Assembly (NCBI GenBank): GCA_014860575.1
Contig: JACZJK010000035.1
Span: forward strand, 67,175 to 131,174
Reading direction: 5' to 3'
Length of the DNA stretch: 64,000 bases
Source: Bacteroidales bacterium
GTDB taxonomy: Bacteria > Bacteroidota > Bacteroidia > Bacteroidales > JAAYJT01
Shown: positions 18,807 to 33,948 of the stretch, piece by piece
Layout: the number at the start of each line of letters is the position of its first letter
Numbering within the stretch: position 1 is the stretch's first letter
Made by a program: the position numbers and the translations under genes
Notes under the pieces: model-generated
What the model was told of the DNA's origin: nothing
Seen by the model: only the letters and a program-made list of their open reading frames with translations
Databases searched by the model: none

Positions 18807-21800
18807 ATGATGAAGAAATTTGCACTCTCTACATTATTGTTTTTAATGACAACGGTCGGTTTGGCTCAGATCCAAACGCTTGATCAGTTTGAAAACAAAT
18901 CCGGCTGGGATTTTATACAGTCCGATGGAGTTGATCTCAACCTCTCAGTAGACAAAGGATTAAGCGATAATGCACTCCGCTTTGATTATGATTTCACAAA
19001 AGGAACCGGCTACGGGGGCATCCAGAAATTGTTTCCGATTGACCTGCCCGAAAACTATGAGTTTACCTTTTATTTGAAAGCCGAATCGCCGGCAAACAAT
19101 TTTGAGGTTAAATTTATTGATAGCAGCGGCGACAATGTCTGGTGGGTGAATAACCGCAATTATGATTTCCCGGAAGAATGGAAAAAAATCACAATTAAAA
19201 AAAGGCATATCGGATTTGCCTGGGGTCCCACCGATGACCGTGACTTAAAACGCATTGACCGGATTGAGTTTACAATTGCCTCTTTCGTTGGCGGCAAAGG
19301 CACAATCTGGATTGATGATCTCAAATTTAAGCCGCTTCCGCCCGAAACAGCTACTTATCCTGATCCCATTGTAACTGCCTCTTCATCGCATCGTAATCAC
19401 CAACCCGCGCTTATCCTCGACGATTCAAAGGAATCTTCATGGCTGAGCCGTAAGCGTAAAAATCAGTTTGTGCATTTTGATTTTCGAACCCAGAGGGAAT
19501 TTGGTGGCCTACAGATTACGTGGGAAAAGGATCTTCGCGCCAAAAGCTTTGAAATACTTGTTTTCGATGACAATCAATCCTGGGAGAAAGTTTACTCAGT
19601 CAGATCAAATCATGGAGATGTAAGCTTCATAAGAATGCCTGAAACCGAAGCCAGATATTTAAAGATTAATCTTTTAGATGGGGCTACAAAGAACAGGTTC
19701 GGGATTGCTGAAGTCAATTTTCTAGACATAAAAAGCGCTATGTCAGCCAATGATTTTCTCAGATACACTGCTCAGAATTCTACCGCAGGTGATTATCCGC
19801 GCTATTTTCTTGAGCAGGCTTCGTACTGGACTGTAACAGGCGTTAACAACGATATGAAAGAAGCCATGATCAATGAAGATGGAATGGTTGAGGTGGATAA
19901 AGCCCTGTTTTCAATTGAACCAATGATAATATCCGGTGGCAAACTCTATAACTGGAACAATGTACAATCAAACCAATCTTTGAATTATTTTGAAGATGAT
20001 GGCGGGCTTGGTTTCACACCATCAGTAAGCTGGCTTTACGATGATATAAATTTTGTGACAGGGATTTCTGCCAGCGGAGAAGCCAATGTTGATTCCCGCC
20101 TGAATATTGCTTACTCATTCACCAACACTTCAGGCCAAACGAAGGATTTCGAGTTTTATTTGCTGGTACGGCCATTCCAGGTGAATCCTTATTACCAGTT
20201 TTTGAACCTCGAGGGCGGCGCTGGTAAAATTCATTCGATCCGTGGACCGGAAAAAGGTAGGGCAATTACCGTTGATAAGAAGAAACTGTTCTCTACCATA
20301 GATTATGATCATTTCGGGGCATTTGCTTTTGATGCTGGCAACGTAGTTGATTTTATCCGGAATGGCGAAATTCCTTACAGGACTTCTGCCACTGATCCGC
20401 AAGGGCTGGCAGGTGGAGTGATGAAATATATTATGAGACTGAATCCCGGCGAGCGCAAGGAATTCTTTGTAGTAGTCCCGTTTTATGATCCTGTTCCTGA
20501 GAACCACGAAATAAGCAACGAAATAATTGCAGAATATTTCAGACAATCTACCGGGTTCTGGAGAAATCGGGTGGACCACATTAAATTCAACCTGCCCGAA
20601 TCGGCTGACAGGATTGTAAATGCCTATAAATCGAACCTTGCCTATATATTGATCAACCGCGATAAAGCCGGGATCCAACCCGGTTCGCGTTCGTACGAGA
20701 GAAGCTGGATACGTGATGGATCGCTTACTTCATCGGCGCTGTTAAAATCAGGAATTGTTGAAGAGGTGAAAGACTTCATCAACTGGTATGCCGATCACCA
20801 GTACGAAAGTGGCAAAGTTCCCTGTGTTGTGGATTTTCGCGGGCCCGATCCGGTTCCCGAGCACGATAGCCACGGCCAACTGATTTATCTGATCCGTGAA
20901 TATTTCAACTTCACAAAGGACACAGCCTTTCTGCGATCAAAAAATGAAAACGTTTTAATGGCAGTAGAGTACATTGAATCGTTAATTGCCGAAAGATCAA
21001 CCGACCATTTCAAATTCGGCAACGACAGCATCCGGGCTTATTACGGCCTGGTTCCGGAATCCATCAGTCATGAAGGCTATTCCGAAAAACCCATGCACTC
21101 CTATTGGGATAATTTTTTTATCATGAAAGGTTTAAAAGATGCGGTTGAAATCCAGAAGATTCTTGGCGAGCAAGAGCATTACGAAAGCATTGCAAAAACA
21201 CGCGACACTTTCAGGGAAAACCTGTACAATTCCTTTAAATTGGCGATGAAAACCAGGAACATTGATTACCTCCCCGGTTGTGTTGAGCTTGGCGATTTTG
21301 ATGCCACATCAACAACCATCGCCTTAACACCATGCAACGAACTGAATAATCTTCCCCGGCCGGAGGTTTATAATACCTTCGAAAGGTATTACAAGTATTT
21401 CAGGACCCGACGAGACGGTGAAATTGAATGGATCAATTACACCCCTTACGAGACGCGCCTGATAGGTTCTTACATCATTTTGGATCAACCGGAAAGGGCG
21501 CATGCATTAATTGATTTTTTCCTCGACGATCAGCGGCCTCAGGGTTGGCATCATTGGGCCGAAGTTGTTTGGAAAGATTACCGCATTCCGCGATTTATAG
21601 GCGATATGCCACATACCTGGGTCGGCAGCGACTTCATCAATGCCATCCGCTCAATGTTTGTTTATGAAAATGAGTACGATGAATCGCTTGTACTCGCGTC
21701 GGCGCTTTACCAGGATTGGATTGATTCACCTGAAGGAATTTCGGTTGAGAACCTTCCGACCTATTATGGTGAAATCTCATTTTCAATTAAGAAGGAAAAG

Positions 21801-21983
21801 TCGCGCTACCACTTCTCAATTTATGGTGATGCGAACCTTCCCGCCAATGGAATTAAAATCAGGAATTTCAACAGTTTGTTAATGCCTGAAAAAATCACCA
21901 TCAATGGTATTGAGACCCATGATTTTAATGAAAGGGAGATTTCGGTAAGGGAATTTCCTGCAGAAGTAATTGTTTATTATTAA
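18807..21983 (+). CDS. Secreted multidomain protein: CBM-like jelly roll + F5/8 type C (discoidin)-like domain + GH15-like (alpha/alpha)6 region, candidate uncharacterised glycosidase
   Basis: Signal peptide (..TTVGLAQ). The N-terminal ~160 aa are a sandwich-like domain ending WIDDLKFKP. The discoidin-like segment reads PALILDDSKESSWLS ... RYLKINLLDG..FGIAEVNFLD. The C-terminal half has SYERSWIRDGS, which resembles the YxxxWxRD motif of GH15. Confidence 0.55.
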   Translation: MMKKFALSTLLFLMTTVGLAQIQTLDQFENKSGWDFIQSDGVDLNLSVDKGLSDNALRFDYDFTKGTGYGGIQKLFPIDLPENYEFTFYLKAESPANNFEVKFIDSSGDNVWWVNNRNYDFPEEWKKITIKKRHIGFAWGPTDDRDLKRIDRIEFTIASFVGGKGTIWIDDLKFKPLPPETATYPDPIVTASSSHRNHQPALILDDSKESSWLSRKRKNQFVHFDFRTQREFGGLQITWEKDLRAKSFEILVFDDNQSWEKVYSVRSNHGDVSFIRMPETEARYLKINLLDGATKNRFGIAEVNFLDIKSAMSANDFLRYTAQNSTAGDYPRYFLEQASYWTVTGVNNDMKEAMINEDGMVEVDKALFSIEPMIISGGKLYNWNNVQSNQSLNYFEDDGGLGFTPSVSWLYDDINFVTGISASGEANVDSRLNIAYSFTNTSGQTKDFEFYLLVRPFQVNPYYQFLNLEGGAGKIHSIRGPEKGRAITVDKKKLFSTIDYDHFGAFAFDAGNVVDFIRNGEIPYRTSATDPQGLAGGVMKYIMRLNPGERKEFFVVVPFYDPVPENHEISNEIIAEYFRQSTGFWRNRVDHIKFNLPESADRIVNAYKSNLAYILINRDKAGIQPGSRSYERSWIRDGSLTSSALLKSGIVEEVKDFINWYADHQYESGKVPCVVDFRGPDPVPEHDSHGQLIYLIREYFNFTKDTAFLRSKNENVLMAVEYIESLIAERSTDHFKFGNDSIRAYYGLVPESISHEGYSEKPMHSYWDNFFIMKGLKDAVEIQKILGEQEHYESIAKTRDTFRENLYNSFKLAMKTRNIDYLPGCVELGDFDATSTTIALTPCNELNNLPRPEVYNTFERYYKYFRTRRDGEIEWINYTPYETRLIGSYIILDQPERAHALIDFFLDDQRPQGWHHWAEVVWKDYRIPRFIGDMPHTWVGSDFINAIRSMFVYENEYDESLVLASALYQDWIDSPEGISVENLPTYYGEISFSIKKEKSRYHFSIYGDANLPANGIKIRNFNSLLMPEKITINGIETHDFNEREISVREFPAEVIVYY

Positions 21984-22006
21984 CGTTTCCGCCAGCATTT
22001 TTTACT

Positions 22007-24100
22007 ATGAACGAACAGAAAGAAGGCAGAGTAAAGCATGTTTTAGCAGAAGATAGAATCCCTTTCCCACAACTGGCAGCTTATGGTGCAGGCGGAATCA
22101 TTCCCATTGCCCTCTTTAACATAGCCGGGATACTCGTTGGTTTGATGGGCAATATTAGTTTGGGGCTCAGCGCTTTCTGGCTGGGAGTTATTTTAATCAT
22201 ACCCCGTTTGTGGGATGCAGTTTCCGATCCCATTATCGGCCATATGTCAGACAATACCCGTACTCGCTGGGGACGTCGTCGACCATATTTGCTGATAGGC
22301 GGAATCCTGGTAGCATTCTTTTTTGTTGTAATCTGGTGGATTCCCAAAGGTGATATGGTGAGGGTTTGGTTCCCGTCAGAGGCGGGCTTCCAGGCTTTCC
22401 AACTTGTTTACATCTTGGTCGCGCTCCTGCTGTTTTATACTGCCTGCACCATTTTTGAGATCCCACACGGCGCACTTGGTATGGAGATGACCACCGACCA
22501 ACATGAGCGCACCCGGCTTTTCAGTGCCAAAAGCTTTGTCGGTAATCTTTTTGCAATGAGTACACCCTGGCTCTTTGCCCTGGCAAGCCTGGAAATTTTT
22601 AGAGGACCCGGAGGCAATGAGGCTGATGGCATGCGCTATGTTTCCATACTTATCGCAGCCATCCTGATCCCACTCTCGTTCTGGTGGTTCTTTACATTGC
22701 GTGAACCAGGATTCAAACGTGTGAAGAAACAGGCGAAGACGCCTTTCTGGAAAGATGTAAAACACACCGCCAGCAACAGGAATTTTATCATGCTGACGTT
22801 AACGATCTTTACCTTGGCCATGGGATTTAATTTCGTGAACCTGCTGGGGTCGTACATTCCTATTTTTTACATTTTCGGAGGAGATAAAGTTGCAGGGGCA
22901 TATTTGCTTGGAATAAATGGCACTATCTGGGCCATCACAGGGGTGCTGGCTGTATTCCCCCTTAACTGGATCAGTCCGAAACTGGGTAAACGAAAAACCC
23001 TCTCAATTGCAATTTTACTCATGTGCCTCGCGCAACTCTCCAAAATCTTCGCCTATAACCCTCAATATCCTTACCTGATTATTATTCCCACAGTTTTACT
23101 TTCAGCCGGGATGCTGTTTTTCTTTACCCTGGGTTCTTCAATGGTGGGCGATATTTGCGACGAAGATGACCTGAAAACGGGTACACGCACCGAAGGCAGT
23201 TATTATTCTATTTTCTGGTGGTTTATTAAAATGGGAACCGCTTTGGCCAGCTTTGTTGCCGGAGCGCTAATCGTATTTACAATGTTCGACGAAACCCAGG
23301 TTACCAGGGTTGACAGCCTGCAGGGGAGCATCAGGGAAATGCAGGTCAAGGTGCAGGATTGGGGAAGCGCTCAATCACTCATGGGAACCAATACTGAGCT
23401 GATTGAAAAAGCAAAAATACAGACTGCGGAAGCGTTGGCAGAATCACAAACATATGCAATTTATCTTGAGAAGGAATTGCTGAGACAGCCTGAAATGTCG
23501 GGTAAAAAAATAGCTACCTACGAAAGCCAGAAAAAAGACATGTTGGCAAACATCCTTACAGCCACCAACTCCAACATGAATGAGTTGGAACAATTACAGT
23601 CGCGTTTACAAAACATAACATTACCGGCTGATGAAGTTCTTGCCAAATCAATTACAGAAGAGGCAATCACCCTTACATTGCAAACCAGGCTTAACAAAGC
23701 AAGAATGAATTCATTTGAGCTAATGCTGCACCTTGAAGCCAGGGCAATGAAAACAAAAAAGAGCGAAGAACACTATCAGGAACTGATGGAAAACATGCTG
23801 GGCGTAAATAACCGGCTTGCCAATCTGAACACTGCATTGCCACTCGAAAAGCTTGATCAGGAGCTAAGCGTTGTTGAAGACGAAATTGTAGAACTCACAC
23901 AGCAATCGCCATATACCTTGTTTATGATGCGCGCGGTAGAAATAGGGCTGCCATTGCTGTTGAGTATCTTTTCTGTTTTCTTTTTACTGCGTTACTCGCT
24001 AACTGAAAAACGATCCAGCGAAATTAAGGCACTTCTCAAGCAAAGAAACAAGGAAAGACGGGATGAGGAGGACAATGCCAATGGAACAATTATGGCTTAA
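22007..24100 (+). CDS. GPH-family (MFS_2) glycoside:cation symporter with a ~208-aa coiled-coil-like insertion before the last TM helix
   Basis: GPH signature WDAVSDPIIGHMSDNTRTRWGRRRPYLLIG. Repeated hydrophobic helices run up to aa ~426. A hydrophilic heptad-rich segment is encoded by 23285-23908. One final helix follows (TLFMMRAVEIGLPLLLSIFSVFFLL), then a charged tail. Confidence 0.8.
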   Translation: MNEQKEGRVKHVLAEDRIPFPQLAAYGAGGIIPIALFNIAGILVGLMGNISLGLSAFWLGVILIIPRLWDAVSDPIIGHMSDNTRTRWGRRRPYLLIGGILVAFFFVVIWWIPKGDMVRVWFPSEAGFQAFQLVYILVALLLFYTACTIFEIPHGALGMEMTTDQHERTRLFSAKSFVGNLFAMSTPWLFALASLEIFRGPGGNEADGMRYVSILIAAILIPLSFWWFFTLREPGFKRVKKQAKTPFWKDVKHTASNRNFIMLTLTIFTLAMGFNFVNLLGSYIPIFYIFGGDKVAGAYLLGINGTIWAITGVLAVFPLNWISPKLGKRKTLSIAILLMCLAQLSKIFAYNPQYPYLIIIPTVLLSAGMLFFFTLGSSMVGDICDEDDLKTGTRTEGSYYSIFWWFIKMGTALASFVAGALIVFTMFDETQVTRVDSLQGSIREMQVKVQDWGSAQSLMGTNTELIEKAKIQTAEALAESQTYAIYLEKELLRQPEMSGKKIATYESQKKDMLANILTATNSNMNELEQLQSRLQNITLPADEVLAKSITEEAITLTLQTRLNKARMNSFELMLHLEARAMKTKKSEEHYQELMENMLGVNNRLANLNTALPLEKLDQELSVVEDEIVELTQQSPYTLFMMRAVEIGLPLLLSIFSVFFLLRYSLTEKRSSEIKALLKQRNKERRDEEDNANGTIMA

Positions 24101-24117
24101 ATTGAAAATCTTTGAAA

Positions 24118-26547
24118 ATGAATTTTAGTATTAAGGAAAATAACTTTTACCTGGATAATAAAAAGGTCTTTCTCAATTCAGGTGAGATCCATTATTTCAG
24201 GGTTAAGCGTGAGTTATGGAACACTCACCTTGAAGCAGCAAAAGAAGCCGGGCTCGCAGCGGTAAGTTCTTACGTGCCCTGGGCCTGGCATGAGCCTGAT
24301 GAGGGCGTATTTGATTTTGATGGAACCACATTGCCTGAACGCGATCTCAAAGGCTGGCTGAAATTATGCAAGGATTTTGGTCTGACCTGCATTTTGAAAC
24401 CCGGCCCTTATATACTTGCCGAATTCCGCGGCGCCGGTCTTCCATATTGGTTCCTGAACAAATATGGAGAAGCGTTGAGAATGCATAACAGCAGGGGAGA
24501 AGCAGTTCCGAGCGATGGTGTAAGCCTGTTCCACCCTGGATATATCGAAAGTGTTACCCATTGGTATAATCATATTATGCCTTTTATTCGGGAGCATGAA
24601 ATCTCAAATGGCGGGCCGGTGATCATGATGCAGATTTGCAATGAAATTGGTTTGTTCTCATGGCTCGCACATCAGGCTGATTACAGTGAGGATATCAGGC
24701 AGCGGTTTATAAAATACCTTGAAAGCAGGTTTGCCAACATTGAAAAAGTGAATTCATTGTGGGGAACCAATTTCAATGATTTTGAGCATATTGCTTTACC
24801 ACCCGATGGCAAACTTCCGTACGAATCAAAAGGAGATCGCAGCCGTGATTACGAATGGCATTCCTTCTGGCGCATGTATTACGCTGAATACCTCAAAATG
24901 CTTGCGCAGATGGCCAGGGTACATGGCGTTACGGTTCCTTTTTATCACAACCTGCCGGGCTGGATTTACGGGCATGGATATGAGTTTCCGGTGAATATTA
25001 CAATGTATGAGGAATTGTACAGGGAAAAGAGCGATATCATTTTCGGGGTTGATCATATTCCTGAGTTCATGTCGCACTGCAACATGCACGACGACCGGAT
25101 TATTAATGATATAACCATTGCAATGCAGGGAAACAAACCATTGTTTGCTGCGGAATTTCAGAGCGGTTCACGCGAATACCATGTGGTTACGAACCCACGT
25201 GAAATGGAACTTTTTTACAAAGCCAGCATTGCCAATGGACTGACCGGCTGGAATTACTACATGTTCTCACAGGGGCGCAACCCGGAGAAAATGGGCTACT
25301 CAGGCGATACATTTTATTGGTTCACACCATTGACTGCCGAAGGGGAGCGTACAAGCGCGTTTTCATTGGTTCAGCGAATGAGCAAACTCATCAAAACAAA
25401 TGAAAGCCTCATTCTCGAAGCAAAACGTCAATCCGAAATATGTGTGTTGTTCTACCCTCCCTATTATGCTACAGAACTGGAAAGGCCTGAAGAAGGAGCA
25501 TCCGGACTAAAGTTTTCTTATTCTGCCATTCGCAGGCCTGCATATTTTGATGGTTTGCTGAAAGCACTGCAGGTTCTGAATGTAGATTATGACATGCTTG
25601 ACCTGACGAAAACTACTGCTGCTGAGTTAAATAAATACAAACAGGTTTGGGCATTTTGCACCGATGAAATGAATTCAGGGGATCAGCAAACCATGATTAA
25701 CTATGTTGCCGCAGGTGGAAATTTGGTAATCTTCCCGAACCTGCCCAACCGGGAAATGTCACAAAAACCCTGCGCAATTATCCGGGATGCATTGTCAGTT
25801 AAACCCTTAGGAGTCGAAACCATTGATTCGCCTCTTATTGATGTTTTTAGTTTAAGCGATATCAAATGTGCGAACCCGCAAATCGTTTATCCCGAAGAAA
25901 CATTTACGTCTGATGAAGTAATTGCCCGAACACTGAAGGGCAGTGTTTGCGGTTTTTCAAAATCGCATAAAAAAGGCAGGATAATTCATCTGGGAACATG
26001 GATTGGGTTCGACACCGAAGGACACAAACCGATTTACGAAGCTTTACTGGAAACATCGGGAGCAAGACTTCGGAAAGCATCGTCAGACAACGATTTCATA
26101 ACGGTAAGGCAACGATTTACCGATGAAAATTCCGCGATGCTGTTTGTCGGAAATTATTATAATGAAGAGCAAACCGGAACAGTAACCTATACGCATCCAG
26201 GCAGCCATGAAACTATAACGATACCGTTTTCAGGCAAAGCAACTTTGTGGCCGGCTTTATATGCTGTTCTGACCCCAATATGCATGCAAATGGGAGAAGG
26301 ACTGACGATACTTCACAGCACATCCGGTATCCTGGCGATTGAAACAAAGGAATCTATAACTGAAATCACAGTTTTCGGAGATCGCGACCTGGCAGGGGAA
26401 ATCGTTTTTGAAGGCGAGAATTTGGCTCAGATCAATTCGATTACCATTGACGATGAACCGGTTAAAATGCTAAGCAGTGGGAAGCGGATTGTAGTTAATT
26501 ATCCGCACAAGCACAGAGAAGAATTTGTCATCCGTCTTAATTTTTAA
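24118..26547 (+). CDS. Cytoplasmic GH35-like clan GH-A enzyme (beta-galactosidase fold; true specificity uncertain)
   Basis: No signal peptide. Motifs are GEIHYFRV..ELW, SSYVPWAWHEPDEGVFDFDG, ILKPGPYILAEFRGAGLPYWF and GGPVIMMQICNEIG (NE acid/base position). The track start is TTG 24112; I prefer ATG 24118. Confidence 0.7.
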   Translation: MNFSIKENNFYLDNKKVFLNSGEIHYFRVKRELWNTHLEAAKEAGLAAVSSYVPWAWHEPDEGVFDFDGTTLPERDLKGWLKLCKDFGLTCILKPGPYILAEFRGAGLPYWFLNKYGEALRMHNSRGEAVPSDGVSLFHPGYIESVTHWYNHIMPFIREHEISNGGPVIMMQICNEIGLFSWLAHQADYSEDIRQRFIKYLESRFANIEKVNSLWGTNFNDFEHIALPPDGKLPYESKGDRSRDYEWHSFWRMYYAEYLKMLAQMARVHGVTVPFYHNLPGWIYGHGYEFPVNITMYEELYREKSDIIFGVDHIPEFMSHCNMHDDRIINDITIAMQGNKPLFAAEFQSGSREYHVVTNPREMELFYKASIANGLTGWNYYMFSQGRNPEKMGYSGDTFYWFTPLTAEGERTSAFSLVQRMSKLIKTNESLILEAKRQSEICVLFYPPYYATELERPEEGASGLKFSYSAIRRPAYFDGLLKALQVLNVDYDMLDLTKTTAAELNKYKQVWAFCTDEMNSGDQQTMINYVAAGGNLVIFPNLPNREMSQKPCAIIRDALSVKPLGVETIDSPLIDVFSLSDIKCANPQIVYPEETFTSDEVIARTLKGSVCGFSKSHKKGRIIHLGTWIGFDTEGHKPIYEALLETSGARLRKASSDNDFITVRQRFTDENSAMLFVGNYYNEEQTGTVTYTHPGSHETITIPFSGKATLWPALYAVLTPICMQMGEGLTILHSTSGILAIETKESITEITVFGDRDLAGEIVFEGENLAQINSITIDDEPVKMLSSGKRIVVNYPHKHREEFVIRLNF

Positions 26548-26621
26548 CCGCTAAGGCGCAAAGACGTAAAGAAAAGGCTATTTCATAAAAATCCATACGC
26601 CTTCGCGCCTTAGCGGTTTAA
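26546..26621. repeat. Palindromic GC-rich intergenic element, copy 2
   Basis: 14-bp perfect stem: AACCGCTAAGGCGC (26546-26559) pairs with GCGCCTTAGCGGTT (26605-26618), with a 45-nt loop. It shares AAGGCGCAAAGACG and the 24-nt core (26598-26621) with copy 1. Confidence 0.85.
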
Positions 26622-26634
26622 TCTCTTTTCAACT

Positions 26635-29600
26635 ATGAACATTATAAACCAATCAGGGCTCACCGTTAAATTCCTTGGAAATGGCTCAATCAAAAGTTTT
26701 GAAGCAGATCCCATCAGGATCAGCCTTAAAGAAACAACGCCTTTTTCAAAACCGGGAGCCAATATCTACCTTAGAAAAAGGTCAAAACCCATTGAGTTCA
26801 TAGCCCTCCTCGGACCCGAAAGCAATAGTCGGTTTAAAGTTTCCGGCGAGACTTTGATTGCCGGCGGCATCTGGCAGGGTATTGAATATCTTTGCTCACT
26901 CCGGCTTTCGCCGAAAAGTCTGAGCTGGCAGTTCATGATCGAAATCAACAACAAATCTGATGAAGAGGTCGAGCTTGATTTAATTTATGTGCAGGACATT
27001 GGATTGAAACCAATCAATTCAGGGCTGATCAATGAATATTATGTAAGCCAATACCTCGAAAGACGAATCCTTGAAGATCAAACCTTTGGCTCAGTAATAT
27101 GTTGCCGCCAGAATATGAAAGAAGCCATTGGCAATCCTTGGTTCATGATGGCTTGCGAAAATGGCGCTGTTGCAGGAAGCACGGATGGCATGCAGTTTTA
27201 TGGCAAAACTTACCGGGAAACCGGGATTCCTGAAGGTTTGATTATAGAAAGGCTGGGGGGCGAGTATGCCGGTGAATCATCTGTTGTTGTTTTGCAGGGA
27301 AAACCCTTCAAACTTGCTATAGGAGAAAATTTTAAGAGTGTTTTTTTTGCTACTTATTTGCACGATCACCCAAAGGCTTCATCAGAAGACGATCTGGGCC
27401 GCTTAGCCACCCTGAAATCGGAATTTGATATTAAGAATCCTTCCGGTAGTCCTGGCGAATGGTTAGCACCGGAAAAAAACATCTTCAATACTTCCGCTTT
27501 TTTCCCTGTTGAAGATTTAAATGATGTCGAACTGAACCAGTTTTTTGGCAACGAACGGCGACATCCTGAAAAAGTGGATGGCCGCTTATTGTCGTTTTTC
27601 AGCAAAGAGAACAGGCATATTGTACTCAGGGCAAAAGAGTTGCTTGCCGACCGGCCTCATGGCCATATCATGCAGGCCAAAGCCGGACTGGTACCTGATG
27701 AAAACATCGTATCCACCACTGCTTTTATGTTTGGTGTTTTCAATTCGCATCTTACACAGGGAAATACAAATTTCAATACACTGCTATCCATTTGCACGAG
27801 CCAGTTTAATCTTTCGCCAGAATCAGGCCAACGGATTTTTGTTGAAATAAATGACACACTCTATTTGCTTGGAGTTCCCTCCGCGTTTGAAATTGGCTTG
27901 AACCATTGCCGCTGGATTTATAAGCATGGCAAGTACTGCTTCCAGGTTCGAACCTGGACATCTAAATCAGCCCCACAGGTGAATATGGATGTCAAGGTTC
28001 TCAGGGGTGATGATGTGAGATTTATAATTACGCATGATTTTGATGGTTTGAACGGCTGGAAAGCTTTTACCGGAAACAACAATGGCGAATATATTTTCAG
28101 GCCAAAGCCAGATAGCATGATAGCCGGAAAATTTCCAGAAGCACAATTCCGGATAAGGGTTCAAAGCGAGAATGCTGAATTTTCGGCGAACGATAATGAA
28201 GTCTTTTACGGTAATGACAAGAGCTTATCTGATTCAAAGTACGTGCTGGATGTCAGGACAACTTCTGCGTTTTGTATGAGTTTTCTTGCTGAAGTAGGTT
28301 GCGAAGCCGAAATGATTCAGTTTGAAAACGCCGATGAACAGTGGCTCTCCGATTGCATTGATGCCGGTTTTGCATGGCAGGGCTTAAGTTTGAACCTATC
28401 TCTTGAAAGTCAACAGAAAGATGTTTTAGCTATTCGTGAAATCTTACCCTGGTATGGCATGAACGCTTTGACCCATTTTCTGACCCCATACGGCCTCGAA
28501 CAGTTCAGCGGCGCTGCCTGGGGAACACGCGATGTTGCCCAGGGGCCGGTTGAGTTGTTGCTGTGCCTGCAAAAATATGATGAAGCCAGGCAAGTTTTGC
28601 GCATTATCTTCTCGAACCAAAACCCTGATGGCGGCTGGCCGCAATGGTGGATGTTCGATAGCTATCACAACATCAGGGCGCATGATTCCAACGGCGATGT
28701 GGTTTACTGGTGCATCATAGCGCTTGCTAATTATGTCAAAGTTACCGGCGATACACGCATCCTTGACGAAGTACTCCCTTATTATCATCAAAACGGAATT
28801 AATGCTGCTGAAAAAACTTCACTCAGCGAGCACATGAACAGGCTGATCAATATGATTACCGGATCATTTATCCCGGGCACCGCGCTTGTGCCCTTTGGTG
28901 GCGGCGACTGGAATGATTCTTTACAACCTGTTAGTGAGCAACTCGCTCAACGCATGATCTCAAGCTGGACGGTAGAAATGAACTACCAGGCTTTTAAGGA
29001 TTATCAGCAGGTATTTATAAGAACCGGACAGACTGAAAAAGCCGGCGAACTGGCTCAGATTAGCGAAAGGATCAAATCTGATTTTAACAAATATCTTGTA
29101 AAAGATGGCGTGGTAGCAGGATATGGACTGGTGGAAAAAAATGGCAACATCAGTGTTTTGCTTCACCCGACTGATACCACAACCGGAATCCAATACAGTA
29201 TTTTACCCATGGAACGTGGCATACTCAGTGAAATCTTTACCAAAGAACAGGCCTTGCATCACCAGGATTTAATTGAAAAGCACCTGAAAGGCCCCGATGG
29301 CGCCCGCCTCATGGATCGCCCACTCAAATATAAAGGAGGCATTCGAACAATTTTTCAAAGAGCTGAAAGCAGTACTTTCTTTGGCCGCGAAATTGGCCTT
29401 ATGTATATGCATGAACATATCCGTTATGCAGAGTCATTGGCCCGCACGGGCAATGCCGATGCGTTTGTGAAAGCGCTTCGGCAGGCAATCTCGGTGGCTT
29501 ACAGGGATATTGTGGATTGTGGTGATATCCGCCAGGCAAATTGTTATTACAGCAGTTCAGATGTTGCTTTCAAAAGCAGGTATGAAGCTGATGAGCTTTA

Positions 29601-29979
29601 TGATAAGATTGCGGCTGGCAACATCACAGTCAGAGGTGGCTGGCGGGTGTATTCAAGTGGGCCGGGTATTTATATCGGGCTGATAATTTCAAAATTACTG
29701 GGCCTACGGATTGAATCTGATTATGTGATCCTTGACCCGGTTATGCCGTTTGCGTTTAGCGGGCTAAATGTTTCAATGAAATTTCTGAGCCATGACGTAA
29801 GGTTCAGATATAGAATAGAAGAAAACAACCACAGCCCGAAAACTGTTTTCATCAATATGCATCCTGTTGAGTTCACAAAAGAAGCAAATCCATACAGGAA
29901 TGGTGGTGTGATGATCCGCAAGGAAGCGTTTATCAAGATGTTGCATCAGGCATCAAACGAAATTGAAATTATCTTATAA
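26635..29979 (+). CDS. Cytoplasmic GH94-like glycoside phosphorylase (candidate 1,2-beta-oligoglucan phosphorylase)
   Basis: No signal peptide; 1114 aa. The (alpha/alpha)6-type region has AAWGTRDVAQGPVELL, NPDGGWPQWW and FGGGDWNDSLQP. GDWND is the catalytic-Asp motif I associate with GH94 phosphorylases. Confidence 0.65.
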   Translation: MNIINQSGLTVKFLGNGSIKSFEADPIRISLKETTPFSKPGANIYLRKRSKPIEFIALLGPESNSRFKVSGETLIAGGIWQGIEYLCSLRLSPKSLSWQFMIEINNKSDEEVELDLIYVQDIGLKPINSGLINEYYVSQYLERRILEDQTFGSVICCRQNMKEAIGNPWFMMACENGAVAGSTDGMQFYGKTYRETGIPEGLIIERLGGEYAGESSVVVLQGKPFKLAIGENFKSVFFATYLHDHPKASSEDDLGRLATLKSEFDIKNPSGSPGEWLAPEKNIFNTSAFFPVEDLNDVELNQFFGNERRHPEKVDGRLLSFFSKENRHIVLRAKELLADRPHGHIMQAKAGLVPDENIVSTTAFMFGVFNSHLTQGNTNFNTLLSICTSQFNLSPESGQRIFVEINDTLYLLGVPSAFEIGLNHCRWIYKHGKYCFQVRTWTSKSAPQVNMDVKVLRGDDVRFIITHDFDGLNGWKAFTGNNNGEYIFRPKPDSMIAGKFPEAQFRIRVQSENAEFSANDNEVFYGNDKSLSDSKYVLDVRTTSAFCMSFLAEVGCEAEMIQFENADEQWLSDCIDAGFAWQGLSLNLSLESQQKDVLAIREILPWYGMNALTHFLTPYGLEQFSGAAWGTRDVAQGPVELLLCLQKYDEARQVLRIIFSNQNPDGGWPQWWMFDSYHNIRAHDSNGDVVYWCIIALANYVKVTGDTRILDEVLPYYHQNGINAAEKTSLSEHMNRLINMITGSFIPGTALVPFGGGDWNDSLQPVSEQLAQRMISSWTVEMNYQAFKDYQQVFIRTGQTEKAGELAQISERIKSDFNKYLVKDGVVAGYGLVEKNGNISVLLHPTDTTTGIQYSILPMERGILSEIFTKEQALHHQDLIEKHLKGPDGARLMDRPLKYKGGIRTIFQRAESSTFFGREIGLMYMHEHIRYAESLARTGNADAFVKALRQAISVAYRDIVDCGDIRQANCYYSSSDVAFKSRYEADELYDKIAAGNITVRGGWRVYSSGPGIYIGLIISKLLGLRIESDYVILDPVMPFAFSGLNVSMKFLSHDVRFRYRIEENNHSPKTVFINMHPVEFTKEANPYRNGGVMIRKEAFIKMLHQASNEIEIIL

Positions 29980-30060
29980 CGATCATTGAGCCTTTGATTG
30001 ATGCCGGTGAAAGCTTCAAATCTAAATGATAACAAAATTCTGACATGAAAGAAATTTGAG

Positions 30061-32355
30061 ATGAAGATAAAATTAATATTGACAGCGCTGCTTTTAGCTC
30101 TCATGATCTTATCCTTTTCTCAGAAGAAGGAACCTGTGGCCGGTTCCGAAATGGATGCATTGATAAATGAACTTATGCAGCGCATGACCATGGAAGAAAA
30201 GATCGGGCAACTCAATCTGCTGCCTGGTTATGAAGATATAGTCACTGGAGAGGCGACTTCGTCAGAAATAGGAAAAAAAATACTGGAGGGCAAAGTAGGC
30301 GCTGTATTCAATCTGCGAACCTTAGGAAAAATACGTGAGATGCAACGCATTGCGGTTGAAGAAAGCAGAAATAAAATCCCGCTTATGTTTGGCCTGGATG
30401 TCATTCATGGTTACCGTACGGTTTTCCCTATTCCACTGGGACTGGCTGCAAGTTTTGACATGGATCTGATTGAGCGAAGCGCAAGTATAGCGGCTAGTGA
30501 GGCAACTGCCGACGGCTTATGCTGGAATTTTTCTCCAATGGTTGATCTTACCCGTGATCCCCGCTGGGGTCGCATCGCCGAAGGTTTTGGTGAAGACCCT
30601 TACCTCGGTTCCCGCTTCGCAGAAGCATTCGTAAGAGGTTATCAGGGGGATGATCTTTCGAAAAATAACACAATGATGGCTTGTGTAAAGCATATGGCTT
30701 TGTATGGCGCTGCTGAGAGTGGCCTTGACTACAACACCACCGATATGAGCCGCTTGCGTATGTTCAATGAGTATTTTCCACCTTATCTGGCTGGAATCAG
30801 GGCTGGCGCCGGAAGCGTAATGACCTCCTTCAATGAGGTTGATGGAATTCCTGCATCAGGAAATCGTTGGCTGCTGACTGAAGTTTTGCGCGATAATTGG
30901 GGTTTTGACGGTTTCGTGGTAACCGATTATACTGCCGTTAATGAAATGATGATGCATGGCGTCGGCGATCTTCAAACTGTTTCGGCAATGGCTTTAAAAG
31001 CAGGAGTGGATCTGGATATGGTTGGTGAAGGCTTCTTAACAACACTCGGAAAATCATTGGAAGAAAAAAGGATTACGCCTTATCAGATTGATCAGGCATG
31101 CCGCAGAATACTGGAAGCCAAATATAAACTCGGATTATTCCACGATCCATACAGGTATTGTTACGAAGAGCGCTCAGAAACTGAAATTTTCACCGAAGAA
31201 AATAATCGCATTGCCAGGGAACTGGCTGCACAAACCTTTGTTTTGCTCAAAAATGAAGGACAAATATTGCCGCTTAAACCCCAGGGAAAAATAGCACTGA
31301 TAGGGCCACTGGCTGATAGTCGCATGAATATGGCAGGCACGTGGAGTGTGGCCGTTGATCATAATCAATCAATAACAGTTCTGGAAGGATTCAGAGATGC
31401 GGTGGGCAACATGGCAAATGTTTATTATGCCAAAGGTGCCAATATTACCGACGACCCAAAACTTGACCAAAGGTCAGCAGTGCGGCGAATGCCAACGATT
31501 GATACAATAAGAACTCCTGAACAATTAAGGGATGAAGCTGTAGCGCTTGCAGCAGAATGCGACGTTGTTTTAGCGGTGATGGGTGAATCAGCTGAAATGA
31601 GCGGCGAAAGCAGCAGCCGTACTGATTTGCAGCTTCCCGGCAGCCAGCGCGAACTGCTCAAAGCTTTAATGAATACGGGTAAACCTTTAGTATTGGTTGT
31701 GTTCGCAGGCCGCCCATTAATTCTGGATTGGGAAAAGGAAATTATTCCTGCGATCCTGAATGTATGGTTTGGAGGAACCCAAAGCGGAAATGCTATTGCA
31801 GATGTTGTTTTTGGCAAAGTCAATCCCTCTGCCAAACTACCTGTAACTTTTCCACGAAGTGTAGGACAAATCCCAATATATTACAATCATAAAAACACCG
31901 GACGCCCTCTGGATGATGATGAGTGGTTTAAAAAGTTCCGGACCAATTATCTTGATATTCCCAATGAACCTTTATGGCCTTTTGGTTATGGCCTGAGCTA
32001 TACAAATTTTGATTACGGGAAAGTTGTACTCGACAAAACAGAGTTTAGCGAAGGACAAGAGCTGAAGGCGAGCATTAATGTCAGAAATAGCGGTAGTTAC
32101 GATGGTGCCGAAGTGGTGCAGCTTTATATACGAGATATGGTTGGTAGCATCACCCGTCCGGTGAAAGAACTGAAAGGATTTCAAAAAGTGCACCTGAAAG
32201 CAGGCGAACAAAAAACAATAACTTTTACTGTTCAGACAGAAGACCTGGCTTTCTATCACGATGACATGAGTTTTTTTGCTGAAAAAGGAGAATTCATTCT
32301 AATGATTGGCAGTAATTCAAGCGATACGCAAGCAATAGGCTTTTCTTATAAATGA
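30061..32355 (+). CDS. Periplasmic GH3 beta-glucosidase
   Basis: Signal peptide. GH3 motifs are KIGQLNLL, RDPRWGRIAEGFGEDPYL, KHMALYGA and GFDGFVVTDY (nucleophile Asp). There is a C-terminal fibronectin-like domain. Confidence 0.9.
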   Translation: MKIKLILTALLLALMILSFSQKKEPVAGSEMDALINELMQRMTMEEKIGQLNLLPGYEDIVTGEATSSEIGKKILEGKVGAVFNLRTLGKIREMQRIAVEESRNKIPLMFGLDVIHGYRTVFPIPLGLAASFDMDLIERSASIAASEATADGLCWNFSPMVDLTRDPRWGRIAEGFGEDPYLGSRFAEAFVRGYQGDDLSKNNTMMACVKHMALYGAAESGLDYNTTDMSRLRMFNEYFPPYLAGIRAGAGSVMTSFNEVDGIPASGNRWLLTEVLRDNWGFDGFVVTDYTAVNEMMMHGVGDLQTVSAMALKAGVDLDMVGEGFLTTLGKSLEEKRITPYQIDQACRRILEAKYKLGLFHDPYRYCYEERSETEIFTEENNRIARELAAQTFVLLKNEGQILPLKPQGKIALIGPLADSRMNMAGTWSVAVDHNQSITVLEGFRDAVGNMANVYYAKGANITDDPKLDQRSAVRRMPTIDTIRTPEQLRDEAVALAAECDVVLAVMGESAEMSGESSSRTDLQLPGSQRELLKALMNTGKPLVLVVFAGRPLILDWEKEIIPAILNVWFGGTQSGNAIADVVFGKVNPSAKLPVTFPRSVGQIPIYYNHKNTGRPLDDDEWFKKFRTNYLDIPNEPLWPFGYGLSYTNFDYGKVVLDKTEFSEGQELKASINVRNSGSYDGAEVVQLYIRDMVGSITRPVKELKGFQKVHLKAGEQKTITFTVQTEDLAFYHDDMSFFAEKGEFILMIGSNSSDTQAIGFSYK

Positions 32356-32377
32356 TTAGTATTTACGGCAGGTTTTT

Positions 32378-32385
32378 TACATTTG
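32378..32385 (+). promoter_or_regulatory. Candidate -7 promoter box (TACATTTG) upstream of the sugar-porter gene
   Basis: TAnnTTTG match in the 120-nt gap after the GH3 gene, 91 nt upstream of ATG 32476. Confidence 0.35.
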
Positions 32386-32475
32386 TCTTTTCAATACACT
32401 TGATGACCCGTTTTTCCAGCTTCCATTAGCTAACAGGATTTAAGTATTCGAAATTGAACATTAATACTGAATTAC

Positions 32476-33912
32476 ATGAATCAGAAAGAACCAGTCAGTT
32501 TTCACCCACCTGCGATTAATCATGCCCGGGTGATCGGCCTTTCAGTTGTTGCAGCCTTGGGTGGCTTTCTTTTCGGTTTCGACAGCGGGGTAATCAATGG
32601 TACAGTAGGTGCGCTGCAACAAGCCTTTAATTCCGATGCAGTTGGCACAGGCTTTAATATTGCTTCTATGCTATTGGGTTGTGCAGCAGGCGCTTTTTTT
32701 GCCGGAACACTGGCCGATAAAATTGGCCGTAAATACACCCTGCTGATAGCTGCTGTTGCTTTCATTGTCAGCGCCTGGGGTTCAGGGATTGCAGATGGTT
32801 CAACAGAATTTGTTATTTTTCGTGTGCTTGGAGGACTTGCCGTGGGCGCTGCCAGTATTATTGCTCCAGCCTATATTGGAGAAATAGCTCCCTCACATAT
32901 TCGGGGCAGATTGATTTCGCTTCAGCAACTTGCCATTGTGCTAGGTTTGTTCATGGCTTTTTTCTCCAATTACAATATTGCCAATGCTGCAGGTGGCGCA
33001 TCCGGAGCGTTTTGGTGGGGATTCAATGCCTGGCAGTGGATGTTCTGGATTGAAATTATTCCTGCATCACTTTTCTTCATCTTTTTATTCTTCATACCCG
33101 AATCACCCCGCTACCTTGTTGCTGCAGGTAAAGATGAAAAAGCCAGGAAAATAATTGCCAGCCTCACTGATGAGGAAACAGCAAGGATGCAGGTTGAAGA
33201 AATAAAGCTCACAGTTTTTCGCGAACGCAAGCCAAGACTTTCAGATATTATCAATCCGGCCAGTGGAAAGATCCATCCCATTGTGTGGATAGGAATTGCC
33301 CTTGCCGCTTTGCAGCAGTTTACCGGTATCAATGTTGTGTTTTATTATGGTTCAGTATTATGGCAAGCCGCTGGCTTTACTGAAGCCGACGCCTTGCTGA
33401 CCAATGTAATCAGTGGTTCGGTAAACGTGTTTTTCACTTTTGTGGCGATTGCTTTGGTTGACAAAGTTGGCCGCAAACCATTGTTGCTTGTAGGTGCGTT
33501 AGGACAAGCCGTGACCCTCGGAATTTTAGGTTTGATTTTCGCTTTCGGCGCAAAGGATGCTTCAGGCGGACTTGAATTAACCGGCAAAAGTGGTGTGATT
33601 GCGCTGGTGGTGGCTAACCTTTATATTGCTTTCTTCGCAACCACATGGGGGCCGGTAATGTGGGTGATGCTCGGCGAAATGTTCCCTAATAAATTCAGGG
33701 GAGCAGCACTTGCTGTTGCTGGTTTGGCCCAATGGGGCTCCAACTTCCTGATTACAATTTCTTTCCCGATCCTTCTTACATCCATCGGGCTTGGAATTTC
33801 GTATGGCATTTACGCCGCTTTTGGCTTGCTGGCATTTTGGGTCGTAAAGCGTTATGTTACGGAAACCAAGGGCCGAACGCTTGAGGAAATATCTATGGAT
33901 GAAGCCGGTTAA
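32476..33912 (+). CDS. MFS sugar porter (monosaccharide:H+ symporter)
   Basis: Sugar-porter signatures are GFLFGFDSGVING, GRKYTLL, PESPRYL and TETKGRTLEEI. About 12 hydrophobic segments. Confidence 0.9.
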   Translation: MNQKEPVSFHPPAINHARVIGLSVVAALGGFLFGFDSGVINGTVGALQQAFNSDAVGTGFNIASMLLGCAAGAFFAGTLADKIGRKYTLLIAAVAFIVSAWGSGIADGSTEFVIFRVLGGLAVGAASIIAPAYIGEIAPSHIRGRLISLQQLAIVLGLFMAFFSNYNIANAAGGASGAFWWGFNAWQWMFWIEIIPASLFFIFLFFIPESPRYLVAAGKDEKARKIIASLTDEETARMQVEEIKLTVFRERKPRLSDIINPASGKIHPIVWIGIALAALQQFTGINVVFYYGSVLWQAAGFTEADALLTNVISGSVNVFFTFVAIALVDKVGRKPLLLVGALGQAVTLGILGLIFAFGAKDASGGLELTGKSGVIALVVANLYIAFFATTWGPVMWVMLGEMFPNKFRGAALAVAGLAQWGSNFLITISFPILLTSIGLGISYGIYAAFGLLAFWVVKRYVTETKGRTLEEISMDEAG

Positions 33913-33948
33913 CTTTACAATTCAAAAACTTTAATCAACCTCAGAAAA

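Follow-up and report, generated by a model that had tools for sequence, protein, structure and literature searches.

Two kinds of enzymes that act on fragments of beta-1,2-glucan, and their co-occurrence with GH144 endoglucanases, were published between 2014 and 2022. The 1,2-beta-oligoglucan phosphorylases (SOGPs; GH94, EC 2.4.1.333) include LpSOGP (Cphy_0694; PDB 5H3Z) and LiSOGP (Lin1839) (PMC5309861, PMC3960220), and they act only on sophoro-oligosaccharides (Sopn) with a degree of polymerization of at least 3 (PMC5309861). In Firmicutes, SOGP genes lie in clusters that also encode an ABC transporter and a cytoplasmic GH3 beta-glucosidase, which hydrolyzes sophorose (Sop2). The other enzyme is IaSGT (IALB_1185), a GH35 beta-1,2-glucosyltransferase from Ignavibacterium album (PDB 7VKW-7VL5 and 7X87; Kobayashi et al. 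2022, PMC8861115). IaSGT prefers Sop2 as the donor, disproportionates Sopn by transferring single glucose units, does not hydrolyze, and lacks beta-galactosidase activity (PMC8861115). It makes poor use of Sopn as the acceptor: with Sop2 alone, it has a Km of 120 mM and a kcat/Km of 0.07 s-1 mM-1, and aryl- and alkyl-glucosides surpass Sop2 as acceptors by 30-800 times (PMC8861115). The GH144 endoglucanases (SGL) produce Sop2-5 (PMC12102758). Related loci of Bacteroidetes, from Chitinophaga pinensis (CpSGL) and Bacteroides thetaiotaomicron (BT_3567), encode SusC/D, a GH144 endoglucanase, and periplasmic GH3 homologues; in the papers that we consulted, the characterized examples end in periplasmic hydrolysis. 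The locus that we studied has these components as well, but a cytoplasmic branch is added, with a symporter, a GH35-like protein, and a GH94-like protein. Because a 2022 paper had already described both the GH35 activity and a GH144/GH94 gene cluster in which it occurs (PMC8861115), this branch is less novel than a first-pass annotation of the DNA had implied.

We analyzed a 64-kb stretch of DNA (the window) from an uncultured member of the Bacteroidales. Its SusC-like and SusD-like genes adjoin each other and share a strand with the glycoside hydrolases, as in a Sus-like polysaccharide utilization locus, and every gene from 7991 to 34758 is on the + strand (Table 1). The locus is a beta-1,2-glucan locus: the two GH144 homologues match CpSGL (661-aa protein; 5GZH, E 5e-153) and XcSGL (461-aa protein; 8XUL, E 1e-102) and the GH3 protein matches periplasmic BT_3567 (5XXL, E 6e-291). 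The GH3 protein also matches Lin1840 (E 1e-165). These matches agree with the glucan setting proposed in the first-pass annotation, which was also exact in its coordinates for a GH35/GH94 pair directly downstream of a symporter: the symporter gene ends 17 nt upstream of the GH35 gene.

Table 1. Features of the beta-1,2-glucan locus, with positions in the window
Feature	Position	Strand	Evidence or remark
SusC-like TonB-dependent transporter	7991-11032	+	Pfam
SusD-like lipoprotein	11044-12519	+	Pfam; lipobox
Two GH144 endo-beta-1,2-glucanase homologues, 661 aa and 461 aa	15213..18703	+	Both lipoproteins (lipoboxes)
Conserved secreted protein, 1058 aa	18807..21983	+	Predicted CBM11-like, CBM32, supersandwich, alpha/alpha barrel
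GPH-family (MFS_2) oligosaccharide:cation symporter, 697 aa	22007..24100	+	Pfam MFS_2 E 1e-63; TIGR00792 gph E 7e-49
GH35 beta-1,2-glucosyltransferase homologue (SGT-like), 809 aa, no signal peptide	24118..26547	+	PDB match, residues, model
Imperfect palindrome, 26-nt arms, filling the GH35-SOGP spacer	26543..26621	+	RNA MFE -31.9 kcal/mol, z -5.8
SOGP-type GH94 homologue, 1114 aa, no signal peptide	26635..29979	+	Pfam, LpSOGP match, residues
GH3 beta-glucosidase with signal peptide (periplasmic), hydrolytic parallel route	30061..32355	+	Pfam GH3 N/C/Fn3
Sugar_tr-type MFS monosaccharide transporter	32476..33912	+	Pfam Sugar_tr E 3e-117

The GH35-like protein is homologous to IaSGT, which is its top solved homologue (7VKW/7VKX; E 2e-154, 518 bits, 35-37% identity); the scores are 235 bits for GlmA glucosaminidases and no more than 98 bits for beta-galactosidases. 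Its open reading frame starts at an ATG. There is an in-frame TTG two codons 5' of this (at 24112), and the preceding stop excludes a longer N-terminus. The acid/base motif noticed in the first-pass annotation (ICNEIG) is present in the translation. The predicted catalytic residues are the acid/base E176 and the nucleophile E346 (Glu176 and Glu343 in IaSGT), and 15 of the 16 functional residues of IaSGT are identical. The exception is a change from Val to Leu in the aglycone pocket, which here consists of L100, L179 (V179 in IaSGT), F180, and L183. All of the subsite -1 residues (Y52, E102, N175, N275, and Y378) are retained, with Asn rather than the Asp of GlmA at 175, and Arg349 of subsite +1 corresponds to R352. 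Among the homologues that we examined from both clades, Y52, L100, E102, N175, E176, F180, L183, N275, G278, W279, D309, E343, R349, Y378, and Y397 (IaSGT numbering) are invariant, while V179 is Val or Leu. An AlphaFold2 model (pLDDT 87.4) aligns with 7VKY in Foldseek with a target-normalized TM-score of 0.94 and an rmsd of 2.3 A, and it has the three-domain fold: a TIM barrel, a Rossmann-like domain, and a C-terminal beta domain. The protein differs from IaSGT in that it belongs to a separate Bacteroidales subclade of ~810 aa, instead of the ~707-aa clade, and its C-terminal domain is larger and GlmA-like. From these similarities, we infer that it would transfer single glucose units from Sop2 or Sopn, forming beta-1,2 bonds, without hydrolysis. 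Against this inference, identity to IaSGT is only 35-37%, and transfer versus hydrolysis is not a property that sequence reveals.

The 1114-aa protein is homologous to SOGP-type GH94 phosphorylases, and for both proteins, the E-values for homology are far beyond chance. It is nearly the same length as LpSOGP (1113 aa) and has the same four domains in Pfam (SOGP_N, E 2e-51; SOGP_2nd, E 2e-56; Glyco_hydro_94, E 1e-13; SOGP_4th, E 1e-10), including the extra N-terminal domain (Ndom1). In SOGPs, the duplicated N-terminal domain makes the enzyme monomeric. The open reading frame starts with ATG, and residues 4-1103 align with LpSOGP (E 9e-182; 38.7% identity over the catalytic half). Across the alignment, 16 of 17 functional residues are identical, and these are also conserved in 66 orthologues. 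In LpSOGP numbering, the catalytic Asp760 corresponds to D761 (predicted; within GGGDWND), and R630, D631, W758, and E917 of subsite -1 correspond to R632, D633, W759, and E919; these five are invariant in all 67 sequences. The phosphate-site residues Y922, H924, S1005, and S1006 correspond to Y924, H926, S1007, and S1008, and the SOGP-specific residues of subsites +1/+2 (N138, Y141, Q621, R907, R916, and Y1004) correspond to N133, Y136, Q623, R909, R918, and Y1006. Of the two small residues that leave room for subsite +2, Ala626 is kept and Gly623 is replaced by Ser, which is still small (43 of the 67 sequences have Ser and 24 have Gly). The domains and residues bear out the SOGP-like assignment made in the first-pass annotation from the size and the GGGDWND motif, and the protein is predicted to release glucose-1-phosphate from Sopn with a degree of polymerization of at least 3 in a phosphate-dependent reaction. 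The known SOGPs differ in that identity is ~39% and in that the host here is a Gram-negative member of the Bacteroidales with SusC/D and MFS import.

Kyte-Doolittle hydropathy shows no hydrophobic segment at the N-terminus (first 37 residues) of either protein. The best 10-residue means are 0.26 (GH35-like) and 0.56 (GH94-like), as compared to 2.3-3.3 for SusC, SusD, both GH144 proteins, the 1058-aa protein, and the GH3 protein, so the two stand apart from the other enzymes of the locus, as had been claimed. Since the only beta-glucosidase of the locus (GH3) has a signal peptide, the 64-kb window encodes no other cytoplasmic enzyme to dispose of Sop2; there could be a cytoplasmic beta-glucosidase elsewhere in the genome. 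Sophoro-oligosaccharides are presumably imported into the cytoplasm by the GPH symporter, and the pair probably finishes the breakdown of these beta-1,2-glucan fragments inside the cell. The first-pass annotation had described cytoplasmic phosphorolysis as unusual for Sus-type systems, which overstates its rarity. Symporter-fed cytoplasmic phosphorylases are indeed a minority in Sus-type loci, but they are known, for example in the GH130 mannan pathway of Bacteroides fragilis. The locus also keeps the ordinary periplasmic route, with the signal-peptide-bearing GH3 protein and the Sugar_tr-type transporter, which presumably takes up the glucose that is freed in the periplasm.

We compared 80 other species-level genomes and counted only informative loci. 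The symporter gene immediately precedes the GH35 gene in 75 of 76 loci, and the SOGP gene, encoded on the same strand, immediately follows it in 70 of 72, with a median spacer of ~19 nt. Synteny of the 1058-aa protein holds in most of the 80 related loci and extends to those of Ignavibacteria. IaSGT resembles the GH35-like protein in its surroundings as well as in its active site and lack of a signal peptide: its gene lies among GH144 genes and adjoins the same ~1060-aa discoidin-domain protein. But in that genome an ABC transporter follows the gene, whereas here an MFS symporter precedes it. Also, a four-domain SOGP immediately follows the GH35 gene here, while the GH94 of Ignavibacteria is a different 791-aa, two-domain type whose gene does not adjoin that of SGT. 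Therefore, the function of SGT is not strictly SOGP-dependent.

In the pathway that we propose, surface and periplasmic GH144 endoglucanases would cut beta-1,2-glucan to Sop2-5, which would enter the cytoplasm via the GPH symporter. There, the inverting, SOGP-type GH94 enzyme would convert the non-reducing-end glucose of Sopn (n of at least 3) to alpha-glucose-1-phosphate and halt at Sop2. The retaining, IaSGT-type GH35 enzyme would use Sop2 as the donor, freeing the glucose at the reducing end and attaching the remaining one to another Sop2 or to Sopn. This disproportionation (2 Sop2 -> Sop3 + Glc) would regenerate the substrate of SOGP, and because Sop3 would be recycled to the phosphorylase, the net reaction would be Sop2 + Pi -> Glc + Glc-1-P. 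At the cytoplasmic end of the locus, then, SOGP and SGT may together constitute a "sophorose phosphorylase," a proposal for which we see the case as evenly balanced. Family membership, conserved active sites, the lack of signal peptides, and strict adjacency of the genes are observed, whereas the activities, transfer in preference to hydrolysis, and the use of Sopn over another glucoside as the acceptor in vivo are inferred. The term "transglycosylation/phosphorolysis module" from the first-pass annotation is the right description.

A parallel is the handling of maltose by MalQ (amylomaltase) and MalP (maltodextrin phosphorylase) of Escherichia coli. MalQ, a cytoplasmic transglycosylase, frees glucose and extends short oligosaccharides that are not substrates of the phosphorylase, and MalP then shortens the extended oligosaccharides to sugar-1-phosphate. 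The two systems are not homologous (GH77 and GT35 on alpha-1,4 bonds versus GH35 and GH94 on beta-1,2 bonds), so the likeness would be one of analogy and not of membership. As a beta-1,2 counterpart of MalQ/MalP in environmental Bacteroidales, the two-enzyme cycle would require the ~810-aa subclade to have evolved a usable affinity for sophoro-oligosaccharides as acceptors, and we favor this as the physiological role of GH35 beta-1,2-glucosyltransferases only tentatively, at somewhat less than even confidence. If it is correct, anaerobes would recover all but one of the glucosyl units of beta-1,2-glucan as glucose-1-phosphate without a cytoplasmic beta-glucosidase.

The difficulty for the cycle lies in the acceptor. 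The clade of the GH35-like protein strictly conserves both the +2-blocking Glu102 and the hydrophobic aglycone pocket; together with the poor use of Sopn by IaSGT, this suggests that something other than a sophoro-oligosaccharide may be the natural acceptor. Instead, the same enzymes and first steps might operate without a cycle, with another cytoplasmic glucoside (alpha or beta, with a hydrophobic or small aglycone) as the acceptor, so that the Sop2 left by SOGP would end up in sophorosides or in an elongated glucoside primer, with glucose as a by-product. The Km values of IaSGT, which are 0.02-0.4 mM with alkyl and aryl glucosides but 120 mM when Sop2 is both donor and acceptor, fit this idea, as does its authors' model, in which the GH94 enzyme supplies IaSGT with Sop2 as the donor; and the invariance of the pocket (L100, V/L179, F180, and L183) and of E102 in the homologues examined from both clades suggests that the pocket is under selection. 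Yet the conserved locus contains no candidate acceptor or gene for making one, the acceptor would be needed in stoichiometric amounts to dispose of all of the Sop2, and a symporter-GH35-SOGP order that is all but obligate within a catabolic locus points more to carbon recovery than to glycoside synthesis. We consider this alternative unlikely, although it carries real weight. A cytoplasmic beta-1,2-glucosidase (sophorase) is more doubtful still: the ~810-aa subclade might hydrolyze the Sop2 left by SOGP to two glucoses, as the GH3 enzyme Lin1840 does in the Listeria SOGP cluster. Identity to IaSGT is just 35-37%, the larger C-terminal domain resembles that of the GlmAs (the nearest other relatives, which are hydrolases), and in known SOGP clusters, the partner of the phosphorylase is a Sop2-hydrolyzing beta-glucosidase (PMC4757417). 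But all of the -1/+1 subsite and pocket residues are as in IaSGT, except for the one change from Val to Leu, and IaSGT hydrolyzes at under 0.01 U/mg; the sequence gives no sign of a switch to hydrolysis.

It is very improbable that the GH94 enzyme is synthetic in vivo, making beta-1,2-oligoglucans (such as an osmolyte or storage glucan) from glucose-1-phosphate. SOGP reactions can run in either direction and serve for preparative synthesis (PMC3960220, PMC11975218), but this gene lies within a SusC/D locus that also encodes endoglucanases, importers, and a beta-glucosidase, and the locus has no glucan exporter or gene for supplying glucose-1-phosphate. We give even less credence to the GH35-like protein being an ordinary beta-galactosidase or exo-beta-glucosaminidase that is in the glucan locus by accident. 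GenBank and JGI do name it a beta-galactosidase (MBE0662727.1 in GenBank), the GH35 and GH42 models of Pfam match it, and its top NCBIfam match is exo-beta-D-glucosaminidase. However, that match scores 263 bits against an equivalog cut-off of 1500, NCBIfam GH35_fam scores 33 bits against a cut-off of 500, and beta-galactosidase structures align over the first ~200 residues only. Also, the amino-group-binding Asp of GlmA (Asp178 in TkGlmA) is replaced by Asn175, the GH35 gene has the same position across 80 beta-1,2-glucan loci, and IaSGT is inert on pNP-beta-Gal and lactose. The grouping with IaSGT thus supports the earlier suspicion that a beta-galactosidase annotation would be wrong. The phosphorylase is a "hypothetical protein" in GenBank. 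Behind the two database labels are relatives of a characterized GH35 beta-1,2-glucosyltransferase and a characterized GH94 1,2-beta-oligoglucan phosphorylase.

Two smaller features are worth recording. Hydropathy indicates that the symporter has a ~200-aa helical insert (residues ~446-640) ahead of its final transmembrane helix. Also, the orthologous loci, with spacers of ~10-20 nt, lack the palindrome that separates the GH35 and SOGP genes here; this palindrome forms an inverted and direct repeat with 18735-18797, and it is a genome-specific repeated element that lies outside the conserved module.

Every gene of the sugar locus in the window (4767-34758) lies on the + strand. The two GH144 proteins of the locus resemble CpSGL and XcSGL, which are biochemically proven endo-beta-1,2-glucanases, and the GH3 protein resembles BT_3567, a periplasmic beta-glucosidase that acts on sophoro-oligosaccharides (see table). 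Judging from these similarities, this is a beta-1,2-glucan utilisation locus, in agreement with the first-pass annotation, which had assigned it to glucan use. That annotation also described a GH35-like and a GH94-like gene right after the symporter gene; both open reading frames are present, and their translations contain the motifs ICNEIG and GGGDWND. Scans of positions 17000-35500 gave 47 promoter-like sites versus 35 expected, using a tool without a Bacteroidetes promoter model, and 22 terminator-like sites versus 20 expected.

Features of the sugar locus and its surroundings (positions within the window)
Feature	Length (aa)	Position	Strand	Remarks
Reg_prop/Y_Y_Y regulator		within 4767-34758	+	
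SusC-like and SusD-like proteins		within 4767-34758	+	clear signal peptide or lipobox each
Two accessory surface proteins		within 4767-34758	+	
T9SS-tailed surface protein	425	12575-13852	+	one of the two accessory surface proteins; internal 300-nt direct duplication, 12618-13406 (+), 74% identity, copies 489 nt apart
Two GH144 proteins			+	match CpSGL (5GZH, E 5e-153) and XcSGL (8XUL, E 1e-102)
Palindromic element		18735-18797		
Discoidin-domain protein	1058	18807-21983	+	secreted; between GH144 gene and symporter
MFS_2/GPH symporter	697	22007-24100	+	ends 17 bases before GH35-like gene
GH35-like gene	809	24118-26547	+	ATG at 24118; stop codon ends at 26547
Palindromic element		26543-26621		
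GH94-like gene	1114	26635-29979	+	ATG at 26635
GH3 protein		after GH94-like gene	+	matches BT_3567 (5XXL, E 6e-291), also Lin1840
Sugar_tr monosaccharide transporter		after GH3 gene	+	
Esterase (secreted alpha/beta-hydrolase)		33949-34758	+	last locus gene
Tandem array		34764-34845		14-nt period, CAAAG-rich, just 3' of esterase gene; related copy at 42180-42219, 7.4 kb off
AMP-binding (acyl-CoA-synthetase-like) paralogues	596 and 592	36118-39760	+	in tandem, right after sugar locus
Palindromic element, weak		~59545-59560		

As the first-pass annotation had reported, the pair differs from the other enzymes of the locus in lacking signal peptides. In a simple hydropathy test, the maximum 10-residue Kyte-Doolittle mean at the N-terminus was 0.26 for the GH35-like protein and 0.56 for the GH94-like protein (no hydrophobic stretch), whereas the SusC, SusD, T9SS-tailed, LamG, GH144 (both), 1058-aa, GH3, and esterase proteins have clear signal peptides or lipoboxes, with values of 2.3-3.5. 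Because they have no signal peptides, both proteins are predicted to be cytoplasmic. A signal peptide overlooked through a wrong start can be excluded, as there are in-frame stops 2 and 0 codons 5' of the respective ATGs. (The GH35-like gene has an alternative TTG two codons 5' of its ATG, and the in-frame stop ahead of the TTG excludes a longer N-terminus.)

Among proteins of solved structure, the closest to the GH35-like protein is IaSGT (IALB_1185), the GH35 beta-1,2-glucosyltransferase of Ignavibacterium album (518 bits, E 2e-154). Archaeal exo-beta-glucosaminidases score 222-235 bits, and beta-galactosidases score at most 98 bits, with alignments confined to the first ~200 residues. An AlphaFold model (51 input sequences; pLDDT 87.4, pTM 0.89) fits the IaSGT structures with a target-normalised TM of 0.94, an rmsd of 2.3 A, and E 7e-70, and is less close to the exo-beta-glucosaminidase GlmA (TM 0.82-0.85) and to GH42 enzymes. 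The placement of both proteins of the pair is by ranking of bit scores and by clade alignments. In IaSGT, the acid/base is E176 and the nucleophile is E343; Y52, E102, N175, N275, and Y378 form subsite -1; R349, G278, W279, and D309 form subsite +1; L100, V179, F180, and L183 form the aglycone pocket; and Y397 is also listed (PMC8861115). We aligned the window protein with 119 homologues from the Bacteroidales clade and 120 from the Ignavibacteria clade; every one of the listed residues is invariant save V179, which is Val or Leu (Leu in the window protein). At position 175, where the window protein and IaSGT have Asn, glucosaminidases have Asp. Overall identity to IaSGT is just 35-37%, and the window protein belongs to a distinct clade of ~810 aa (versus ~707 aa in the IaSGT clade), with a GlmA-like C-terminal beta domain that is bigger than in IaSGT.

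The GH94-like protein contains all four Pfam domains that are specific to 1,2-beta-oligoglucan phosphorylases, or SOGPs (SOGP_N, SOGP_2nd, GH94 catalytic, and SOGP_4th). Its alignment with LpSOGP (5H3Z, 1113 aa; E 9e-182) spans the full length, with 38.7% identity in the catalytic half. We mapped the functional residues of LpSOGP (PMC5309861) onto the window protein. In LpSOGP numbering, it keeps the catalytic acid D760 (the final D of GGGDWND); R630, D631, W758, and E917 of subsite -1; Y922, H924, S1005, and S1006 of the phosphate site; and N138, Y141, Q621, A626, R907, R916, and Y1004 of subsites +1/+2. The sole changed position is G623, which is Ser in the window protein; of 67 aligned sequences (the window protein and 66 orthologues), 43 have Ser there and 24 have Gly, and the remaining positions are all invariant. 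The earlier proposal that this protein is of the oligoglucan phosphorylase type agrees with these features, and we consider it a putative SOGP.

When one genome per species was scanned, at least 571 genomes turned out to encode relatives of the GH35-like protein. For synteny, we took the best 80, nearly all of them environmental Bacteroidales MAGs, and placed the window proteins by tblastn. In these loci, the block of GH144, 1058-aa protein, symporter, GH35, and SOGP is kept in order and orientation. Of the 72 loci with enough sequence, 70 have the SOGP gene immediately 3' of the GH35 gene and in the same orientation (median spacer ~19 nt), and the symporter gene lies immediately 5' of the GH35 gene in 75 of 76. 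The same symporter-GH35-SOGP block, at ~69% protein identity, is found in three MAGs labelled Verrucomicrobia (L007, L013, and L014) and one labelled Saccharimonadales (L016); these labels are probably binning or taxonomy errors rather than true occurrences. The transglycosylase gene is not always accompanied by an SOGP: in three Ignavibacteria loci, the IaSGT-clade gene lies between genes for a ~1060-aa protein and a GH144 protein, followed by an ABC transporter, and just one of the three has a GH94 gene, a non-adjacent one of a shorter type (791 aa). Because this arrangement differs, we regard the symporter-GH35-SOGP operon as a Bacteroidales form of a type of cluster that was already known.

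From family membership, active-site conservation, the absence of signal peptides, and operon-like conservation, we infer a route through the symporter, the SOGP, and the GH35 enzyme. The first-pass reading of the pair as a cytoplasmic transglycosylation/phosphorolysis module is supported. GH144 endoglucanases release Sop2-5, where Sop2 is sophorose (PMC12102758), and phosphorolysis by SOGP is restricted to a DP of at least 3, so that Sop2 is left over (PMC5309861). IaSGT acts on Sop2-5 by disproportionation, moving one glucose unit at a time; Sop2 is its preferred donor, and glucose is released (PMC8861115). In the proposed cycle, sophoro-oligosaccharides (Sopn) would be imported via the symporter; the SOGP would convert Sopn to Glc-1-P and Sop2; and the GH35 enzyme would convert two Sop2 to Sop3 and glucose, with Sop3 re-entering the SOGP, for a net reaction of Sop2 + Pi -> Glc + Glc-1-P. 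Since the sole beta-glucosidase of the locus is periplasmic, no other locus enzyme could dispose of cytoplasmic Sop2. The MalQ/MalP pathway handles maltose in a like manner, and the cycle would resemble it in function.

The chief weak point of the closed cycle is the kinetics of IaSGT, whose Km for Sop2 doubling as acceptor is 120 mM and for which alkyl and aryl glucosides are much better acceptors (PMC8861115). E102 and the hydrophobic pocket, which are behind IaSGT's poor use of Sopn acceptors, are kept in the window protein. Given these kinetics and residues, we give the closed cycle about an even chance. The same two points favour another glucoside as the true acceptor of the GH35 enzyme, which we nevertheless consider rather unlikely. 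That the GH35 protein is a hydrolytic sophorase seems less probable still; IaSGT does not hydrolyse Sop3 (PMC8861115). A plain beta-galactosidase, which is what the public name would suggest, or a glucosaminidase is rejected as very improbable: the score hierarchy, Asn175, the NCBIfam cut-offs, and the synteny are all contrary. IaSGT is inactive on pNP-beta-Gal and lactose (PMC8861115). We give as little credence to a biosynthetic reading.

Both kinds of enzyme had been published before, SOGP in 2014 and 2017, the GH35 transglycosylase in 2022. The latter paper noted that the cluster of IaSGT also contains a GH94 homologue and proposed that Sop2 from this homologue feeds IaSGT; it left the in vivo role of IaSGT unsettled because sophoro-oligosaccharides are poor acceptors in vitro (PMC8861115). 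The tight gene coupling now provides a concrete, testable hypothesis for that role. A search of the accessible literature for a Bacteroidales locus combining GH144, GH35, and GH94 found no such description, only the I. album paper. What is new is the ~810-aa GH35 subclade, which is not yet characterised; the near-obligate association of this subclade, inside a SusC/D locus, with an SOGP of four domains and with an MFS symporter; and the cycle hypothesis. The public names of both proteins are wrong or empty across the clade: in GenBank, the GH35-like protein is a "beta-galactosidase" (MBE0662727.1), a label that the first-pass annotation had rightly distrusted, and the GH94-like protein is "hypothetical protein IH597_09685" (MBE0662728.1). 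NCBIfam, too, lacks adequate models for the two proteins. Galactan use predicted for such MAGs from their CAZymes would therefore be misleading.

The first-pass annotation had called cytoplasmic phosphorolysis unusual for Sus-type systems. This is only partly right: it is a minority design, but an already known one (for example, GH130 in mannan utilisation by Bacteroides), and the window locus also retains the usual periplasmic GH3 route along with a separate monosaccharide transporter. Beta-1,2-glucans reach soils, sediments, and waters as cyclic glucans and as the osmoregulated periplasmic glucans of Proteobacteria. The presence of this locus type in hundreds of uncultured Bacteroidales species (the at least 571 genome matches) suggests widespread ATP-saving scavenging by phosphorolysis.

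The most interesting leftover, which we rate above the pair itself, is the 1058-aa protein. Its gene has the same place in most of the best 80 Bacteroidales loci, and a counterpart adjoins the SGT gene in Ignavibacteria also. Some database members of its group (P0270 and P0339) are fused to GH144. It has no recognisable catalytic family, and a PDB sequence search found homologues for its CBM32 and CBM11-like N-terminal domains only. An AF2 model (pLDDT 68) has a supersandwich and an alpha/alpha barrel, with weak fold matches to GH94, GH116, and GH65; pLDDT is below 50 over residues 817-947 of the helical barrel, so the GH94/GH116-like matches are a mere lead. The protein is a candidate for an undescribed enzyme family active on beta-1,2-glucan.

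In the symporter, the MFS_2 match stops at residue 442 (profile position 401 of 427), residues 446-640 form a stretch (~200 aa) that is charged and prone to helix formation, and one more transmembrane helix follows (643-661). The stretch is thus an apparent insert before the last helix, not a tail, and it is conserved, with full-length matches in related loci. The duplication in the T9SS-tailed protein indicates two repeated domains.

The GC-rich palindromic element (core GCGCCTTAGCGGTTTA) fills two intergenic spacers of the operon and forms hairpins with an MFE of -32 to -33 kcal/mol (z -5.8 and -3.8). A conserved regulatory element of the pair can be excluded: the hairpin between the GH35 and SOGP genes recurs as a repeat in the other spacer and is missing from orthologous loci, where the two genes nearly abut. 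The element is therefore probably a genome-specific REP/MITE-like insertion.

Secreted alpha/beta-hydrolase esterases like that of the window recur in the beta-1,2-glucan loci of Bacteroidales as well as of Ignavibacteria (L083, 19821-20564; L084, 9245-9976), and one Ignavibacteria locus has a PhoD phosphatase. Natural cyclic and periplasmic glucans bear succinyl or phosphoglycerol substituents, and we speculate that these enzymes could strip them.
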